A stretch of DNA of 64,000 bases from an uncultured Clostridia bacterium (GCA_946625575.1 CAMOTD010000002.1:2507-66506); one strand, 5' to 3'. Shown: positions 1,927 to 7,816, counted from the first letter of the stretch. A program made the numbers and translations. Notes: generated by a model from the sequence alone, not told the origin.

Positions 1927-3021
1927 TTGAGTAAAAAAATCGGTCGTTTCTTTATTACCCTTTTCGGACTCATGCTTGGGTTCGGTCTTGTGCTTCTGGT
2001 CTTCAAAAACAAGGGAGACCTCGGAATAGCTTCTTATCTCGATTCGCTCAGATCCTGGGTCCGCATTCTGATCTACGCCGCAAGCACCGTTTTATTTGGC
2101 ATTATTTTTTTCTTTTTATCACCTGCTATTATAAACGGCGTCGTCAAAATGATCCGAAAGATCGAAAAGCGTACGTCCGAGATGTCAATGGGACAGATCT
2201 TCGTCGGAGTGATCGGTCTCCTTATCGGTCTGCTCATAGCCGTGCTTTTGAGCTTGCTTGTTCAGAAGATCCCGTTTAAGACCGTCGTCATCCTCATTGA
2301 CGTGATACTGTTCATTTCGCTTGCCTATTTGGGATTCAAGATCCCCACGAGCAGGATAAAGGAATTCAACCTTCCCAACTGGTTCAAAAAAAGCTCGGAT
2401 AATCAAGCGGATATTTCAGTCAAAGCAAAACCGAAGCTCCTCGATACCTCCGCCATAATCGACGGAAGGTTTTTCGACGTATACAGGACGGGAGTTATTG
2501 AAGGAAACATCGTCGTTCCCCAATTCGTGCTTGATGAGCTGAGGCATATCGCGGACAGCGCAGACCCCCTGAAGCGCGCACGCGGACGCCGCGGACTCGA
2601 CGCGATCAACGAACTGCAGGAGTCGATCCCCGAAAAGGTTATCGTCAGCACGACGGACTATCCCGAGCTTGACGAGGTCGATACGAAGCTCCTCCGCCTC
2701 TCCGGAGACATGGGCGGCATCGTCGTAACGAATGATTATAACCTCGGAAAAGTCGCGCAGGTGCAGTCCGTTCCGGTGTTCAACATAAACGATCTCGCCA
2801 ATGCGCTGAGGATCAACGTTGTCGCCGGCGAAGTGGTTGAGCTTACCGTCGTTAAGGAAGGCAAGGAACACGGTCAGGGCGTCGCCTATTTCGACGACGG
2901 CACAATGGTCGTTGTCGACGGAGCGGCAAAGCTCGTCGGCAAAACGATCCCCGCAACCGTCACGAGCGTCCTCCAGACTTCCGCCGGAAGAATGGTTTTC
3001 GCAAAAGCGGAAGTGGAATAA
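1927..3021 (+). CDS. yacL: PIN/TRAM domain-containing membrane protein (YacL-like)
   Basis: N-terminal TM helices, a PIN-like core (LLDTSAIIDGR...VPQFVLDELRHIAD...VVTNDYNLGKVA) and a C-terminal TRAM-like beta domain. Lies immediately after carD, as in many Firmicutes. Confidence 0.8.
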   Translation: MSKKIGRFFITLFGLMLGFGLVLLVFKNKGDLGIASYLDSLRSWVRILIYAASTVLFGIIFFFLSPAIINGVVKMIRKIEKRTSEMSMGQIFVGVIGLLIGLLIAVLLSLLVQKIPFKTVVILIDVILFISLAYLGFKIPTSRIKEFNLPNWFKKSSDNQADISVKAKPKLLDTSAIIDGRFFDVYRTGVIEGNIVVPQFVLDELRHIADSADPLKRARGRRGLDAINELQESIPEKVIVSTTDYPELDEVDTKLLRLSGDMGGIVVTNDYNLGKVAQVQSVPVFNINDLANALRINVVAGEVVELTVVKEGKEHGQGVAYFDDGTMVVVDGAAKLVGKTIPATVTSVLQTSAGRMVFAKAEVE

Positions 3022-3032
3022 AGAGTTAATGG

Positions 3033-3066
3033 AACAGCACAGGCTGAATGCCTGTGTTGTTTTTAT
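3033..3066 (+). terminator. intrinsic terminator after the yacL-like gene
   Basis: AACAGCACAGGC-TGAAT-GCCTGTGTTGTT hairpin (one G.T pair) followed by TTTT. Confidence 0.6.
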
Positions 3067-3068
3067 GC

Positions 3069-3165
3069 GTAAAAGAAGGGATTTACAATACCCGCGCAGC
3101 AAGCAGTTTTGGTTTTTAATAGGAGAAGCAGGGATTTACGAACCCCGCGCAGCAAGCTGTTTCCC
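3069..3165 (-). repeat. two tandem degenerate ~45-nt copies of the 3' region (variable arm to acceptor end) of tRNA-Ser(GCT)
   Basis: 3122-3137 GGAGAAGCAGGGATTT is identical to 5663-5678 inside the tRNA and to 5505-5520. The copy continues ACGAACCCCGCGCAGCAAGCTG. A more decayed copy lies at 3069-3113 (AAAAGAAGGGATTTACAATACCCGCGCAGCAAGCAG). Confidence 0.7.
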
Positions 3166-3241
3166 TTCTTATGCTGCTTGCGTTATGCTGCGCTAAGAAT
3201 TTGCTCAGCAAATTCGAGGGTTCAAATTGTTTCGGCGTGAC

Positions 3242-3276
3242 AAAAAGGATACCCGGCTTTGCCGGGTATCCTTTTT
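3242..3276 (-). terminator. intrinsic (bidirectional-looking) terminator downstream of the AIPR gene
   Basis: AAAAAGGATACCCGGC-TTT-GCCGGGTATCCTTTTT: perfect 11-bp GC-rich stem flanked by an A-run and a T-run. Confidence 0.7.
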
Positions 3277-3367
3277 GTGGCTAAAAATTACTATTTCAAC
3301 GAAAGTGAATAATCGTTTACAGTGGTTATTATTTGATGGGCTATGTGCATTATTCAGATATTGATGT

Positions 3368-5212
3368 TCACATCCCTATATCATCAAACACATGCATAAA
3401 GTCAGCTTTTATACGAGTCCACTGCGACCTAAGCGTATTATAATAGTTCTTGTCGCGCTTTAAATAGTTAGTGGGCGTCAGCGTGTTATCGTAGTTGGCC
3501 TCAAAATGGTAACCCGTTATGCCTGCTTCGATTATAATAGTGAACAAGCGCTTAAGAACACCGTCATATCTGTCCTTATCACTGAAGATTTGCGGAGCAA
3601 TGAAGTACTGCAAATTCCCGAGTTCACGAAAAACATCATAAAGGGAATCGACGGCTGTTTCGATATTCGATCGACTGTTCAGCAGGAGAATAAGGTCTTG
3701 TTCCGTAAAGTTGCCTTGCCTGAATCGTGCGGCAAATGCGACGAACGCGATGCAGATGGTGCGCGCATTGTGCGCAAAAGAAATCCTCGTACCCGAATCC
3801 GGATCGGATTCGTTTTCCCTATCAAACTCTCTTTGGAAAACATTCCTGAAATAGTAATCAATGTATAGGAGTTCTTTGCAAAGCTTCGCGATCTGCGCCT
3901 GATTTCCATTGAAAACGGGCTCATAATACTTTGCATCATAAAGCGCGGAGGGCTTGTTTCTGCTTTTGCCGGGAAGCTGGAAAATGCCCGACAAGCAGAG
4001 CTTTCCGATTTCAACCAAGTCTGTATTCATCCAAGGACTCCTATATTGCGAGGGAACGCTTTCGCCGCGCTTTGTCTGATAGAAAATACCTTGCTGCCGC
4101 ATCTCGTTGGCAAACCTGACCTGCTCGGGAGAGTTTGCTTTTAAATCAACAGATTTGATTGCCTTCTGTGAGTTTGTTGCTTTGGCGATGGAAAGACTGA
4201 AGGCGTTCTTTTCATCCTCGGTTTCGCCCATGATTCTGATGATCTTGCAGGGAAGGAAAAGATCGTGATCGGAGTTAATGCTCGGGCTCTTGTGAAGCAT
4301 ATATGTTGTTTGCCCGCCGTTAACTATGGAGAAATTCCGCAGTTTGACATCCTTACCGTCAATTTCGAAGTCTTCGCAAATGATAGTAAGACCATTGTTC
4401 TTGAGCCAGAATGACGCGGGATCCGTATTGATTGTATCTTTAATAGCATTATCGATTTCGCGCCCTGCGATATGATAACGAAGATTGCGTGCCAACAAAT
4501 TTGTATTATGCTGCGCGTACAGTTGCTTTATCGAATAAGCCGATACATTTACTATAGCAGCATTATCTCCGTAAAGCAGATAATTATCCCGCTCGTCAAT
4601 ATGAACCTTCCCCGATTCAACGGTAGGACGACGTGATTCGGATTCCTTGATCTCCTCCTCAATGTCATTAGCAAATAGAATAGAAAGCTCAATATTGCTT
4701 GCACCAGGAAACTGTTCTCTAAACTTTCTTTCAAGGCGATCATTACGTATTCCGCTTTTCTCTGCGCTGGTATAAAAAACAAAATGAATCTTCGACTCTT
4801 CACCGACTTCGGCGTTAAGTGACAGAAATCTTTGCTGTACGATCGTATTGACTTGTTCATAGTGCCCGCTCGTCATATCTTTATAGAACAGGGCCATCTT
4901 CAGCAATGCATTCTGTACGTCCTCATATGTTATTGTACGGTAATACTTTGATTGACAAATAACAAGATCGGCTCCTTCGGAATTGGGATCACTGAGAAGA
5001 ACATCCACACCGCCGTCATACTGACCATCAACAATAAAGTTGTTTAGGTCGGATTCGTTGAGAACCAAAGCTGGATTCTTATAGAAATTGGATTTTACGC
5101 ACAACGCCGAAAACACATAGTCATCGGATTTGCTTCTCATCGTCGGGTAGGCGTCTTTCATTGCGCGGACTTTGGACGCAATAAAGTCGTATGAAGATAA
5201 GGGTGTAGGCAT
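3368..5212 (-). CDS. AIPR family abortive-infection/phage-resistance protein
   Basis: 614-aa ORF. N-terminal VDGQYDGGVDVLL...ADLVICQSKYY (the D-x-DGG[IV]D ... QSK signature I associate with AIPR N-termini, PD-(D/E)xK-like). Central WLKNNGLTII...FSIVNGGQTTY motif typical of the AIPR domain (Pfam PF10592, from memory). A/T-rich codon usage unlike its neighbours. Confidence 0.8.
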   Translation of the reverse strand: MPTPLSSYDFIASKVRAMKDAYPTMRSKSDDYVFSALCVKSNFYKNPALVLNESDLNNFIVDGQYDGGVDVLLSDPNSEGADLVICQSKYYRTITYEDVQNALLKMALFYKDMTSGHYEQVNTIVQQRFLSLNAEVGEESKIHFVFYTSAEKSGIRNDRLERKFREQFPGASNIELSILFANDIEEEIKESESRRPTVESGKVHIDERDNYLLYGDNAAIVNVSAYSIKQLYAQHNTNLLARNLRYHIAGREIDNAIKDTINTDPASFWLKNNGLTIICEDFEIDGKDVKLRNFSIVNGGQTTYMLHKSPSINSDHDLFLPCKIIRIMGETEDEKNAFSLSIAKATNSQKAIKSVDLKANSPEQVRFANEMRQQGIFYQTKRGESVPSQYRSPWMNTDLVEIGKLCLSGIFQLPGKSRNKPSALYDAKYYEPVFNGNQAQIAKLCKELLYIDYYFRNVFQREFDRENESDPDSGTRISFAHNARTICIAFVAFAARFRQGNFTEQDLILLLNSRSNIETAVDSLYDVFRELGNLQYFIAPQIFSDKDRYDGVLKRLFTIIIEAGITGYHFEANYDNTLTPTNYLKRDKNYYNTLRSQWTRIKADFMHVFDDIGM

Positions 5213-5274
5213 ATAATCCTCCTTCTGTTCAGGGGCTTTGGTATGGAATAATCCATTTCGACACTTCTTAACAA

Positions 5275-5303
5275 ATTATACCAAACGAGTTTGTTGTTTT
5301 CAA
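5275..5303 (-). promoter_or_regulatory. sigma-A type promoter for the AIPR gene (TTGAAA-17-TATAAT)
   Basis: Minus strand reads TTGAAAACAACAAACTCGTTTGGTATAAT, about 60 nt upstream of the AGGAGG RBS and ATG at 5212. Confidence 0.5.
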
Positions 5304-5500
5304 GATCTGAGATATAGCTTATTCTAGAGCATGTAGGATCTTTGTTGGCTTATCAGTTATTTAGACGAAACAATCTAAAACGCAAGTGAAACAAAACTAA
5401 CGGAAGAGCCATCGGGAAAGACAGACAAAAAATCTTATTATATAAAGAAAAATGAACATATAGAGAGATTGCAAGTTTCATTAAAAAAGCAATCTCTTTT

Positions 5501-5615
5501 TGGCGGAGAAGCAGGGATTTGATCTCGGCCGGCGTAACCGGCCTCGGTCAGGCGCGGCTCTGGAGCCACACTGTGGCTCCATTCACTCCCGCGCCCGTTC
5601 AAATCCCTGCTTCTT
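5501..5615 (-). other. 115-nt GC-rich multi-hairpin element derived from the tRNA-Ser(GCT) 3' end (not a tRNA)
   Basis: Minus strand: AAGAAGCAGGGATTTGA...TCAAATCCCTGCTTCTCCGCCA forms a ~15-bp closing stem. It encloses GGCGCGG[..GGAGCCACAGTGTGGCTCC..]CCGCGCC and GGCCGG-TTACG-CCGGCC hairpins. The last 22 nt are identical to the tRNA 3' end including CCA. Confidence 0.6.
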
Positions 5616-5624
5616 ATTAAGACA

Positions 5625-5658
5625 AAATAAATACCACCCCTTTGGGTGGTATTTATTT
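5625..5658 (-). terminator. intrinsic terminator of the tRNA-Ser operon
   Basis: AAATAAATACCACCC-CTTT-GGGTGGTATTTATTT hairpin directly abutting the CCA end of tRNA-Ser(GCT). Confidence 0.65.
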
Positions 5659-5750
5659 TGGCGGAGAAGCAGGGATTTGAACCCTGGCGACCCTTCGCAG
5701 ATCCTACTCCCTTAGCAGGGGAGCCCCTTCGACCTCTTGGGTACTTCTCC
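5659..5750 (-). tRNA. tRNA-Ser (anticodon GCT)
   Basis: 92 nt: GGAGAAG-TA-CCC..GGG, anticodon arm CTCCC-CTGCTAA-GGGAG, long variable arm, T arm CAGGG-TTCAAAT-CCCTG, acceptor CTTCTCC, encoded GCCA. Confidence 0.92.
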
Positions 5751-5756
5751 ATATAT

Positions 5757-5846
<90 letters not shown>

Positions 5847-5894: not shown

Positions 5895-5923
5895 ATTATA
5901 TCAAAAGCGATTTTAGTTGTCAA
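5895..5923 (-). promoter_or_regulatory. sigma-A promoter of the tRNA-Ser operon (TTGACA-17-TATAAT)
   Basis: Minus strand TTGACAACTAAAATCGCTTTTGATATAAT: perfect consensus, about 45 nt upstream of the tRNA-Ser(TGA) 5' end. Confidence 0.6.
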
Positions 5924-6063: not shown

Positions 6064-6357
6064 ATGCGTTACGTATATCCGATTATTATGGGTTGTTTGG
6101 CGCTGGGAATACTGATCTATGCCGCTGTGATCGCCATCAGCGGGACTACCGATCTTATCCCCCGTCACTATGCCGCAAGGGTCAGAAATAAAAAGATCTA
6201 TGCACGCCGCTTTGCGCTTCTGCTTGTTATCGTTGCGGCGGCGCCGATCCTTTCCGGCGTCATCGGATTATTCAGCGTTCTTGCCGGCATTATAATTCTC
6301 ATAATTGCCCTAGCCGTATGTCTTTACGTCGGGGCGAGGGTATTTACCGGCAAATAA
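6064..6357 (+). CDS. small hydrophobic membrane protein (about 3 TM helices), function unknown
   Basis: 97-aa ORF with a consensus promoter upstream and a terminator downstream. Three hydrophobic stretches. No recognisable family. Confidence 0.6.
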   Translation: MRYVYPIIMGCLALGILIYAAVIAISGTTDLIPRHYAARVRNKKIYARRFALLLVIVAAAPILSGVIGLFSVLAGIIILIIALAVCLYVGARVFTGK

Positions 6358-6457: not shown

Positions 6458-7816
6458 ATGAAGATTATAATTGCAGGCTACGGCAAAGTCGGTTCTGCAC
6501 TCACAAGGCAGCTTTCCGCCGAAGGTTACGATCTTACCATTATCGATTCGAATAAGAAGAAGCTCGAATCCGGGCAGGAGCTTTACGACGTTTTGGGCGT
6601 GTACGGCAACTGCGCAACTATGGAGGTCCTGCGCGAGGCAGGCGTTATGAACGCTGATCTGCTTATTGCGGCGACCAGCGCGGATGAGATCAACCTCCTC
6701 TGCTGCCTCACGGCGCACAATCTCAATAAAAACATACATACCATCGCAAGGATAAGGACACCCGAATACAGCGAGCAGATCGTTATGATGCGCGATTCGC
6801 TGGGACTTTCGCTTCTCGTCAATCCCGAAAGGCAGGCTGCGCAGGAGATCGAGCGTCTTATCAAGTATCCGGGTTTTTCAAAGCGCGAGAAATTTGCTCA
6901 CGGCCGTGTTGAGATCGCCGAGCTTCGGGTTACGGCGGACAGCCTTCTCAACGAGCTTCCTCTCATGCAGCTTGAGAGCACGACAAAATGTCACTGCCTC
7001 ATCTGCGCCGTTTTGAGGAACGGTGAAGCGATCATTCCGAAGGGCAATTTCGTTTTGAAGGACGGCGACCGCGTATTCGTTACCGCAACCACGAACGAAC
7101 TCGCTCTCCTTCTTAAAAACCTCGGCATAGTCACGCACCGGGTAAAGCGCGTCATTATCTGCGGCGGCGGCAGGATAACCTATTATCTCGCTCAGATGCT
7201 CGAAAGGAGCAATACCTCCGTTCAGATAATCGAGCGCAGTCCCGAAAAATGCCTTGAGCTTGCGGAGCTTTTGCCCAAGGCGACCATATTGAACGGCGAC
7301 GTTTCCGATCTTACCCTCTGGCAGAGCGAAAGGCTCTCCTCCGATGACGCGATCGTTTCGATGACCGGTCTTGACGAGCTTAATATGATCGTGTCGCTTT
7401 TCGTAAAAAACAGCGGCGTTACGCAGGTCATCACAAAGCTCAGCCGCACCGAGAGCTCTCAGGTGCTCGATCATCTTTCAATCGGAAGCGTGATCTGTCC
7501 CAAAGACCTGTGCAGCAACACGATCGTTGGATACGTCCGCGGCATGAAAAACCAGACCGGCACATCCATCGCGGTGCACAGGATCGCCGACGGCAAGTCC
7601 GAAGCCGCCGAATTCCACATTACCAAGGACACCGCCAACTGCGGCGTTCCGCTTCGCAATATAAAGCTCAAAAAGGGTATGCTTATCGCGGCGATACTGC
7701 ACCTTTCCCAGTGCGTTATCCCGAACGGCGATTCGTGCTTCTATCCGGGAGATACGATCATCGTCGTATCCAACTCTGAGACGGGAGTCGCTCGCCTGAA
7801 CGATATTTTCGAGTGA
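6458..7816 (+). CDS. trkA: Trk system potassium uptake protein TrkA (two RCK/NAD-binding modules)
   Basis: MKIIIAGYGKVGSAL Rossmann motif, repeated at VIICGGGRITYYL. About 450 aa. Followed by trkH. ATG 6458 is chosen (GAGG RBS) over 6440. Confidence 0.9.
   Translation: MKIIIAGYGKVGSALTRQLSAEGYDLTIIDSNKKKLESGQELYDVLGVYGNCATMEVLREAGVMNADLLIAATSADEINLLCCLTAHNLNKNIHTIARIRTPEYSEQIVMMRDSLGLSLLVNPERQAAQEIERLIKYPGFSKREKFAHGRVEIAELRVTADSLLNELPLMQLESTTKCHCLICAVLRNGEAIIPKGNFVLKDGDRVFVTATTNELALLLKNLGIVTHRVKRVIICGGGRITYYLAQMLERSNTSVQIIERSPEKCLELAELLPKATILNGDVSDLTLWQSERLSSDDAIVSMTGLDELNMIVSLFVKNSGVTQVITKLSRTESSQVLDHLSIGSVICPKDLCSNTIVGYVRGMKNQTGTSIAVHRIADGKSEAAEFHITKDTANCGVPLRNIKLKKGMLIAAILHLSQCVIPNGDSCFYPGDTIIVVSNSETGVARLNDIFE

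Follow-up and report, generated by a model that had tools for sequence, protein, structure and literature searches.

A predicted AIPR defence gene in a strain-variable cassette within an array of tRNA-Ser 3'-end units in an uncultured Clostridia bacterium

We studied a 64,000-nt stretch of DNA from an uncultured Clostridia bacterium (GCA_946625575.1 CAMOTD010000002.1:2507-66506; the window hereafter), in which a single gene of the AIPR family, predicted to act in anti-phage defence, lies between a yacL-like gene and a tRNA-Ser(GCT) gene. We found that this gene is carried in a cassette that varies between strains of this gut species, and that the cassette is flanked by structured units of about 160 nt, each of which ends in a copy of the 3' end of the tRNA and which also exist in strains that do not have the gene. 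In the reading that we prefer, and to which we give about an even chance, the AIPR cassette is a passenger without a recombinase of its own, lodged in an array of spare attachment sites that is anchored on the tRNA, and is comparable to a pseudo-staphylococcal cassette chromosome (psi-SCC) element or a cis-mobilizable element (CIME).

The array is anchored on tRNA-Ser(GCT) (5659-5750, minus strand), which was found by ARAGORN and by the Rfam tRNA model (56 bits) and the last 22 nt of which make up the repeated core. An exact-match scan located the 16-mer GGAGAAGCAGGGATTT on the plus strand at 3122, 5505, and 5663, the copy at 5663 being the 3' end of the tRNA itself; the expectation from shuffles was 0.02 copies, and none of 100 shuffles reached three. 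These three same-strand copies had been noticed in an initial annotation of the sequence, together with the identity of 5501-5522 to the tRNA end including the CCA, which in fact extends over 25 nt (5498-5522 = 5656-5680). That annotation had also described a similarity of about 45 nt between the 3122 copy and the tRNA; we found a clear resemblance over about 24-30 nt only, comprising 16 nt, a 2-nt insertion, and then GAACCC leading into the T-arm. The decayed tandem copy that it placed beside the 3122 copy was recovered as a 53-nt tandem pair with 77% identity (3059-3111 and 3112-3164). A fourth copy of the core, in inverted orientation at 5597-5614, is an 18-nt perfect complement of the tRNA-Ser(GCT) end. 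The 16-mer is tied to tRNA-Ser, unlike a dispersed repeat, the alternative that the initial annotation had kept in mind.

The copies belong to units with a common plan. Read in the direction of the tRNA, a unit consists of an intrinsic terminator, an inverted partial copy of the T-arm and acceptor, a hairpin-rich body of 70-90 nt, and a direct copy of the last 16-22 nt of the tRNA, usually with GCCA. Unit B (5501-5616, minus strand) contains the direct copy with CCA (5501-5522), a G+C-rich body of 74 nt with two hairpins (5523-5596), and the inverted copy (5597-5614). On the tRNA strand it forms a 16-bp stem closing the two hairpins, with a fold of -74.6 kcal/mol as RNA (z -8.5) and a z-score of -8.7 as DNA. 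Unit C (3122-3239, minus strand) has the same plan in a weaker form. Its 3' end is the exact 16-mer at 3122-3137 (minus strand), corresponding to the tRNA-Ser 3' end without the CCA, and its body (3138-3239) includes an inverted partial T-arm copy at 3216-3229 (GAGGGTTCAAATTG), with a closing stem and two hairpins (z -2.4). Unit D (3069-3121, minus strand) is a truncated, decayed C-type unit composed of a degenerate core at 3071-3084 (AAAAGAAGGGATTT) together with the final ~35 nt of a C-type body.

Two bidirectional terminators accompany these units. T1 (3240-3281), an inverted repeat with an 18-bp stem followed by TGGC at 3278-3281 (the complement of GCCA), forms one block with unit C, and T2 (5623-5660), an inverted repeat with a 17-bp stem, separates unit B from the tRNA. 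A hairpin read from the sequence (AGAGATTGC / GCAATCTCT with a 16-nt loop; 5464-5497, minus strand) comes immediately after the GCCA of unit B and occupies the spot that is held by a terminator after every other core copy. The breakpoints of similarity to the tRNA lie near the T-loop: B begins with TCAAAT, and C reads GGGGTTC-GT-AAAT. By inspection, unit B has a T-stem on neither strand, and ARAGORN called no unit as a tRNA or tmRNA in the window or the other loci. We also rejected the possibility that units B and C are a known RNA, tRNA, or tmRNA, as Rfam 15, run with permissive thresholds on the window and six loci, returned only real tRNAs; the sub-threshold matches of the units, including those of other species, were at chance level.

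Other strains were recovered by exact-protein look-ups and pattern scans, and their flanks were 98.6-98.7% identical to those of the window. From the tRNA toward yacL, the window has the order T2-B, AIPR, T1-C, D, and the yacL terminator. In L067, the order is T3-B, T2-B2, D, and the same yacL terminator, in a gap of 467 nt without a gene; T2 there leads into unit B2 instead of unit B. In L011, T1-C, T3-B, and D are followed by a gene of 438 aa and a different yacL terminator, and in L076 and L077, T3-B is followed by the same 438-aa gene, which encodes a MATE transporter (NCBIfam, 510 bits). Unit B is therefore found in L011, L067, and L076/L077, and unit D in L011 and L067. L075, which together with L011 and L076/L077 has content other than that of the window, with the MATE gene as cargo, shows a further arrangement, in which unit B is truncated and an inverted arm of a different tRNA type appears. 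At 6780-7167 of this locus, the truncated unit is joined to the inverted T-arm (GTTCGAATCTCC...), and then come two copies of one terminator and a non-Ser tRNA 3' end at the contig end; this arm and this end suggest that the same architecture may exist for other tRNAs.

The AIPR cassette is thus strain-variable within the species, and its limits could be placed by comparison with two of the strains. L067, with 98.6% identical flanks, supplies the gene-free site that the initial annotation proposed to seek in relatives; its match to the window ends at 3136 and resumes at 5498 (with 93% identity over 3022-3121), so that the window-specific segment, 3137-5497, is bracketed by both core copies. 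The block at 3122-3281 (unit C, T1, and TGGC; 160 nt) is 98.75% identical to 6312-6471 of L011, where it directly abuts the tRNA, and the DNA specific to AIPR is therefore 3282-5500 (minus strand; G+C content 0.416), which is missing from L011, L067, L076, and L077. Relative to L011, the yacL-side junction falls at 3281/3282, immediately after TGGC, and the two cassette junctions read core2-GCCA|AAAAGAG and TTTTTA|GCCA-T1.

The copies at 3122 and 5505 thus bracket the segment that is absent from L067, yet they are the 3' ends of units and exist without AIPR elsewhere (L067, L011, and L076/L077), and the tRNA lies one unit further off. Since units B and C also occur in strains without AIPR, integration of AIPR did not create the tRNA-end copies, and the suggestion that the repeats are scars of the gene's integration does not hold. 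Serial integration, which had been invoked to explain the multiple fragments, is possible, but rearrangement of an existing array of units explains the data equally well. The initial annotation had in mind site-specific integration of the classical type, with a long core. In a history of this type, one or more islands with a tyrosine integrase would have entered the 3' end of tRNA-Ser, each of them regenerating the tRNA and displacing a 3' fragment, and later deletions would have left only AIPR. The direct repeats of the tRNA 3' end and the clustering of similarity breakpoints at the T-loop agree with such a history; a regenerated target with a displaced fragment is well established (PMC4383910), and tandem ssrA islands are known (PMC3146451). 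There is also a real phage, L037, with a tyrosine integrase and a classical attP covering this same tRNA end, although it has no unit-like sequence; it was the only contig of the viral collection to contain the 22-nt tRNA end. However, the flanking copies occur in AIPR-less strains as parts of units whose architecture and length (149-174 nt) are conserved across species, which random deletion remnants would not produce, and inverted copies are not predicted. Furthermore, the T1 junction retains GCCA but no core copy, the 4 nt repeated at the junctions fit a short-crossover recombinase or another route but not a long core, no integrase remnant is detectable in the window, and two unit body sequences were absent from scans of the viral collection. 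We consider this history very unlikely. Among the viral contigs, 34 of the 35 matches to the 16-mer itself were chance or coding matches, many of them in a conserved frame (WEKQGF), and were discarded.

Around the cores, segments are combined differently in different strains. The body of unit B with its core leads into four different sequences, namely the AIPR-side hairpin in the window, D in L011, T2 in L067, and the MATE side in L076/L077; the tRNA with its core continues into T1, T2, or T3; and the same D flank is joined to a C, B, or B2 body in three strains. This free assortment of segments indicates that crossovers have occurred repeatedly inside the 16-25-nt copies, and that the copies, including the one at 3122-3137, are recombination points. 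Cores of 16-25 nt are short for RecA-type recombination.

In the cassette itself, AIPR (3368-5212, minus strand; 614 aa) is the sole open reading frame (ORF) of at least 150 aa in 3282-5500, shorter ORFs being nested in it or antisense to it, and the initial annotation was correct in placing one AIPR gene between the 3122 and 5505 copies. The protein matches Pfam AIPR (4.6e-32, 112.4 bits against a gathering cut-off of 25, residues 240-389) and, over nearly its full length, the AbiU profile of PADLOC (6.4e-36, residues 28-540 against profile positions 19-523 of 537), and a function in defence is predicted. Identity as MzaE was rejected, because the NCBIfam match covered the domain only and scored 50.7 bits, where the cut-off is 1050. 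More than 1,200 homologues were found, and the family is typical of the content of defence islands. In lactococci, AbiU is a single-gene abortive infection (Abi) system that reduces plaquing modestly and delays phage transcription, and its predicted fold is nuclease-like (PMC13064643).

The low G+C content noted by eye was confirmed: the islet has a value of 0.416 compared with 0.541 in the whole window, and the G+C content at third codon positions is 0.489 in AIPR compared with 0.60-0.72 in the sigma, carD, yacL, trkA, and trkH genes. The gene has its own near-consensus promoter, as had been claimed (TTGAAA-17-TATAAT with an upstream TG; 5303-5275, minus strand), but the terminator attributed to it, at 3240-3278, does not belong to the gene and serves as the tRNA terminator in L011. 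The promoter is within a block that is common to L074, the closest homologue (93% amino-acid identity). The DNA similarity to L074 (blastn, 91% identity over 3371-5311, minus strand) is limited to the region from the -35 box through the stop codon, with unrelated flanks, which indicates that the transferable unit is the gene with its own promoter. More distant homologues come after a restriction-modification (RM) pair of the AlwI type or lie beside tRNA-Val and tRNA-Met genes. Those just downstream of tRNA-Val(GAC) (L002 5062-5138) and of two tRNA-Met genes (L006 4256-4411) are 71-74% identical, and in L002 the homologue is followed by a transposase of the IS256 type and a type I RM system; we looked for repeated tRNA ends around the homologues at these two loci and found none. 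The AIPR cassette is horizontally acquired and foreign in composition, as seen from its low G+C content overall and at third codon positions, the recurrence of the gene and its promoter elsewhere at 91% DNA identity, and the presence of its homologues in defence contexts and beside other tRNAs. An origin by casposon- or transposon-like target duplication was rejected, because the insert lies between two cores without terminal inverted repeats.

Units of the same plan are not restricted to this species. When species-representative genomes were scanned for pairs of cores separated by 125-155 nt, seven loci were obtained. Six are in metagenome-assembled genomes of Clostridia, with tRNA-Ser followed by one to three units of 149-169 nt. 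A second scan, of metagenomes, with the pattern 'GGGATTT, 68-98 nt, tRNA end' gave 14 loci, and 12 of them (on 11 contigs) show one to three units after tRNA-Ser or after a contig end inside tRNA-Ser, three of the 12 holding the unit only, at a contig end or at a locus away from a tRNA. The plan is constant (GCCA, terminator, short spacer, inverted T-arm/acceptor piece, body of 70-90 nt, and tRNA end with GCCA), and the lengths across species are 149-174 nt; the bodies are unrelated in sequence between lineages. As most of the arrays have no cargo, the units are more than leftovers of gene-bearing islands. L056 has three near-identical units in tandem. In the second unit of L063, L065, and L070, the core spacing is 411 nt instead of 174, since 11 nt of the body are swapped for a segment of about 250 nt (net +237 nt) that partly resembles the downstream host flank; this looks like a local duplication into the unit. 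In L078 (5060-5170), from a sister species whose YacL is 90% identical, a hairpin adjoining tRNA-Ser is built of core-like AAGCAGGGATT ... CCCTGCTT and resembles a minimal direct-plus-inverted arrangement, and the gap is filled by a gene of 167 aa without a Pfam match. Homology between B-type units and the unit of L051 was considered and rejected; both contain GAGTGAA, but at different structural positions. The possibility that unit bodies are attP arms of phages or integrative and conjugative elements (ICEs) was likewise rejected, exact scans of the viral collection with the family-2 body motif and the unit B hairpin being empty.

The conservation of the plan raises the question of whether the units function through their structure, either as sites that fold as single strands, like integron attC or the CTX attP, in an integron-like array, or as RNAs that mimic the tRNA 3' end and are co-transcribed with the tRNA operon. 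An inverted copy 70-100 nt upstream of the direct core, enclosing a variable structured body, corresponds to the R''...R' layout of attC, and AIPR, placed between one core copy and the following hairpin unit, is positioned like a cassette. The closing stem, formed by the inverted arm and the tRNA-derived arm, is present in the minimum-energy fold in eight of nine lineages, with z-scores from -1.5 to -8.7 (unit B). Hairpin 2 is kept between B and B2 through five double changes in six pairs with conserved flanks, and in family-2 units the loops vary but both stems, CCGTGC/GCACGG and GGCAAC/GTTGCC, stay the same. However, replacement, rather than covariation, could account for the B/B2 difference; several 5' arms are imperfect and uncompensated in the 3' arm; the z-scores are modest for most units; and the units belong to no Rfam family. 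Moreover, no array has an integron-type integrase beside it, the core differs from GTTRRRY, and AIPR has its own promoter. We regard units of this functional kind as quite unlikely. Similarly doubtful is a more specific proposal, in which the units would be an undescribed class of structured recombination site, with the tRNA-Ser 3' end as the fixed entry and an integrase acting in trans on an array in which defence genes, AIPR among them, would be captured and shuffled.

Sites made of a tRNA-Ser end are used by a recombinase in another species. On contig ORSK01000918 (L058 10226-11848 and L064 640-660), a defence element of about 23 kb lies between unit 1 and unit 2, which are adjacent in related contigs. 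At its tRNA-proximal end, the element encodes a large serine recombinase with Resolvase, Recombinase, and Zn_ribbon domains (3.7e-30), whose best NCBIfam matches, below threshold, are CcrB/CcrA; the cargo comprises Gabija, an RM-like methylase with an S subunit, PDC-S01, PDC-S53, and a DUF4238 protein. At its two ends the sequence reads ...CTTCTCCGCCAA|GTGAAAC... and ...GGCTTTCCGCCAA|CACC..., with only TCCGCCAA in common. About the last dozen codons of the recombinase cross the attachment junction, and the protein would consequently end differently in the integrated state and after excision. The attP, as reconstructed, has dyad symmetry (GTTCAAA-33 nt-TTTGAAC), and the corresponding motifs of the target are 22 nt apart. 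Such a difference in spacing is a feature of the attP of serine integrases relative to their attB. We looked for a free form of the element with the predicted attP junction; the three matches in viral contigs were chance matches to coding sequences and were rejected. A second recombinase, in L092, is 87% identical to that of L058 over the C-terminal 77 residues, and the same arm is joined there to a different Ser-type core, which has units of its own. At 500-1060 of L092 (IMG/VR contig 3300045988_094418), the core GGAGGAAGAGGGATTCG is repeated and is accompanied by its own terminator and an inverted arm, GTTCGAATCCCT; ARAGORN found no tRNA in the fetched 3.5 kb.

With these observations, the preferred reading of the AIPR locus as an array of spare attachment sites can be put as follows. 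The gap between yacL and tRNA-Ser(GCT) would be a recombination hotspot built from an array of units of about 160 nt. The direct copy in a unit and the terminator that follows it would reproduce the tRNA 3' end and its downstream context, and through this mimicry each copy could work as an extra attachment site; the units may exist because they serve in this way. The segment at 3282-5500 would sit at one such site, flanked by the GCCA of unit B and by GCCA-T1, the start of unit C, and may have entered by site-specific recombination. The cassette would need a recombinase supplied in trans, or else exchange of the whole gap through the conserved flanks and repeat copies. On excision, the chromosomal junction would be ...GAGATCAAATCCCTGCTTCTCCGCCACAAAAAGGATACCC... 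(B body-core-GCCA-T1), and the circle junction would be ...GAAATAGTAATTTTTAGCCAAAAAGAGATTGC... (TTTTTA-GCCA-AAAAGAG).

Several observations weigh against this reading. The two AIPR junctions have only the 4 nt of GCCA in common, with a 1-nt offset in the next A-run, and a repeat of 4 nt could be due to chance. A dyad attP reconstructed from these junctions is unconvincing, consisting, by inspection, only of a T5-AGCC-A5 quasi-palindrome and a GTTGAAAT motif in one arm. As the initial annotation had stated, no recombinase was detected in the islet, nor was any detected elsewhere in the 64-kb window; in a tblastn search of the window with the serine recombinase of L058 and the tyrosine integrase of L037, the only match was a trivial one encoded by the core. 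The AIPR flanks (3282-3370 and 5312-5500) had no match among the fetched loci, the islet had no DNA match in plasmid and phage collections, and neither a circle nor another free form of it was found. The example of a serine recombinase is from another species and has different arm sequences, and a simple 'spare attB' model has no need of the inverted arms and conserved hairpins. Finally, rare homologous recombination can also take place between repeats of 16-25 nt, so that the assortment at the cores is by itself no proof of a site-specific enzyme.

Homologous recombination among the short repeats, together with exchange of the whole gap, is a serious alternative. In its full form, no site-specific recombination took place: template switching across a terminator hairpin would have produced the inverted copy, unequal crossing-over the direct copies and the arrays, and AIPR would have arrived by homologous replacement of the gap after an illegitimate insertion. 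The inverted arms track the host tRNA (TTCAAAT versus TTCGAAT cores in L092, and the arm of a different tRNA in L075), which points to a local origin or gene conversion. The tandem units of L056, the duplicated 237-nt piece of downstream flank in L063, L065, and L070, and the shortness of the AIPR junction repeat agree with this alternative, as do the ends of strain-to-strain identity, which fall exactly at the yacL stop codon or inside D or core copies. Against it, crossovers recur within the 16-25-nt cores, at least one recombinase-bearing island, that of ORSK01000918, demonstrably uses such a copy, and the occurrence of one architecture around unrelated bodies in many lineages points to selection or to a dedicated mechanism. 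We consider this alternative somewhat unlikely.

The surroundings of the array are conserved. On the low-coordinate side, the yacL-like gene (1927-3021, plus strand; Pfam PIN and TRAM) is the boundary of the variable region, and its identity with L011 and L067 reaches or passes the stop codon; it is followed by a terminator hairpin read from the sequence (3033-3065, plus strand), which is also present in the empty-site strain L067. On the other side, tRNA-Ser(TGA) (5758-5846, minus strand; ARAGORN and Rfam) lies upstream of tRNA-Ser(GCT) in the same operon and is not repeated. The operon is flanked by a 97-aa ORF, trkA, and trkH. Upstream of both tRNA-Ser genes, at 5895-5923 (minus strand), there is a perfect sigma-70 consensus promoter (TTGACA, 17 nt, TATAAT, with an upstream TG), and transcripts from it that passed T2 would enter unit B and AIPR, which have the same orientation. 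The 97-aa ORF (6064-6357, plus strand), divergent from the tRNA operon, is identical in other samples of the species and had no match in Pfam and NCBIfam searches. Outside the window and unrelated to the array, L067 has a sub-threshold match to a T-box leader (7229-7425, minus strand; 47.5 bits, E 2e-7) near thrS.

In many defence hotspots no mobility genes are visible, and the way in which their content is replaced is an open question (PMC10121019), for which the present locus offers a concrete scaffold that can be tested. With spare copies of the tRNA end inside units, islands with a recombinase could land while sparing the tRNA, and cassettes without one could persist and be reshuffled. Should the units turn out to be active sites, they would account for the islets beside tRNAs in Clostridia that have no integrase, and metagenomes could be searched with them for variable defence cargo. 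Should they be no more than by-products of local duplication, what is left is an ordinary small defence islet at a tRNA.

Among known systems, the SCCmec and psi-SCC elements of staphylococci form a tandem series of cassettes at the rlmH (orfX) 3' end; large serine recombinases move them, and the psi-SCC elements are those without a recombinase. The locus resembles them in having tandem segments at the 3' end of a conserved gene, direct repeats of the gene end with inverted repeats nearby, and recombinase-less members that persist; the resemblance extends to the recombinase of L058, nearest to CcrB/CcrA although below threshold. It differs in that the anchor is a tRNA gene with the crossover at the CCA end, in that the sites are inside structured units of about 160 nt that also form arrays without cargo, and in that the window is free of recombinases and the cargo is a single defence gene. 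CIMEs derive by deletion from known ICEs or integrative and mobilizable elements and use the same integrase (PMC5704250). Like CIMEs, which are flanked by attachment sites, lack recombination and transfer genes, and occur in tandem at one site (PMC5704250), the AIPR cassette is recombinase-free and is bounded by core2-GCCA and GCCA-T1, but no parent element or integrase is identified for it.

Islands of the Islander type are described as being inserted into tRNA genes by the action of a tyrosine integrase (PMC4383910; Williams 2002, as cited in PMC10121019). They have in common with the present locus the tRNA-end repeats at the boundaries, the foreign composition, the empty site, and the breakpoints near the T-loop; here, in contrast, there is no integrase, the repeats pre-exist in empty strains, one of the junctions retains GCCA only, and inverted copies are present. 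The ssrA islands of Dehalococcoides, with a dedicated ssrA-specific integrase and large cargo in tandem, similarly show serial segments, direct repeats of about 20 nt from the end of a tRNA-like gene, and strain-variable content, whereas small structured units without cargo are undescribed there (PMC3146451).

The integron attC site has cores RYYYAAC ... GTTRRRY, IntI is encoded beside attI, and the cassettes are mostly promoterless and use a common promoter; clusters of attC sites lacking integron-integrases (CALIN) have no adjacent integrase. As in integrons, CALIN, and the CTX attP, the modules of the array here end in a structured site of an inverted and a direct core, with the structure kept and the sequence varying at the unit ends in eight of nine lineages; as in a CALIN, no integrase is adjacent, an IntI-type recombinase being undetectable in the window. 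Unlike in integrons, the arms (G)CAGGGATTTGAAC and (GT)TCAAATCCCTGC come from the local tRNA and are, by inspection, off the attC consensus, and AIPR brings a near-consensus promoter that travels with the gene. Hotspot #37 of E. coli is an integrase-poor defence hotspot (PMC10121019). The gap between yacL and tRNA-Ser(GCT) is similar to it in being a site beside conserved genes and tRNAs where the defence genes vary by strain, often with no identifiable mobile element, and differs from it in having an explicit repeat scaffold of tRNA-end units, which provides a concrete and testable mechanism.

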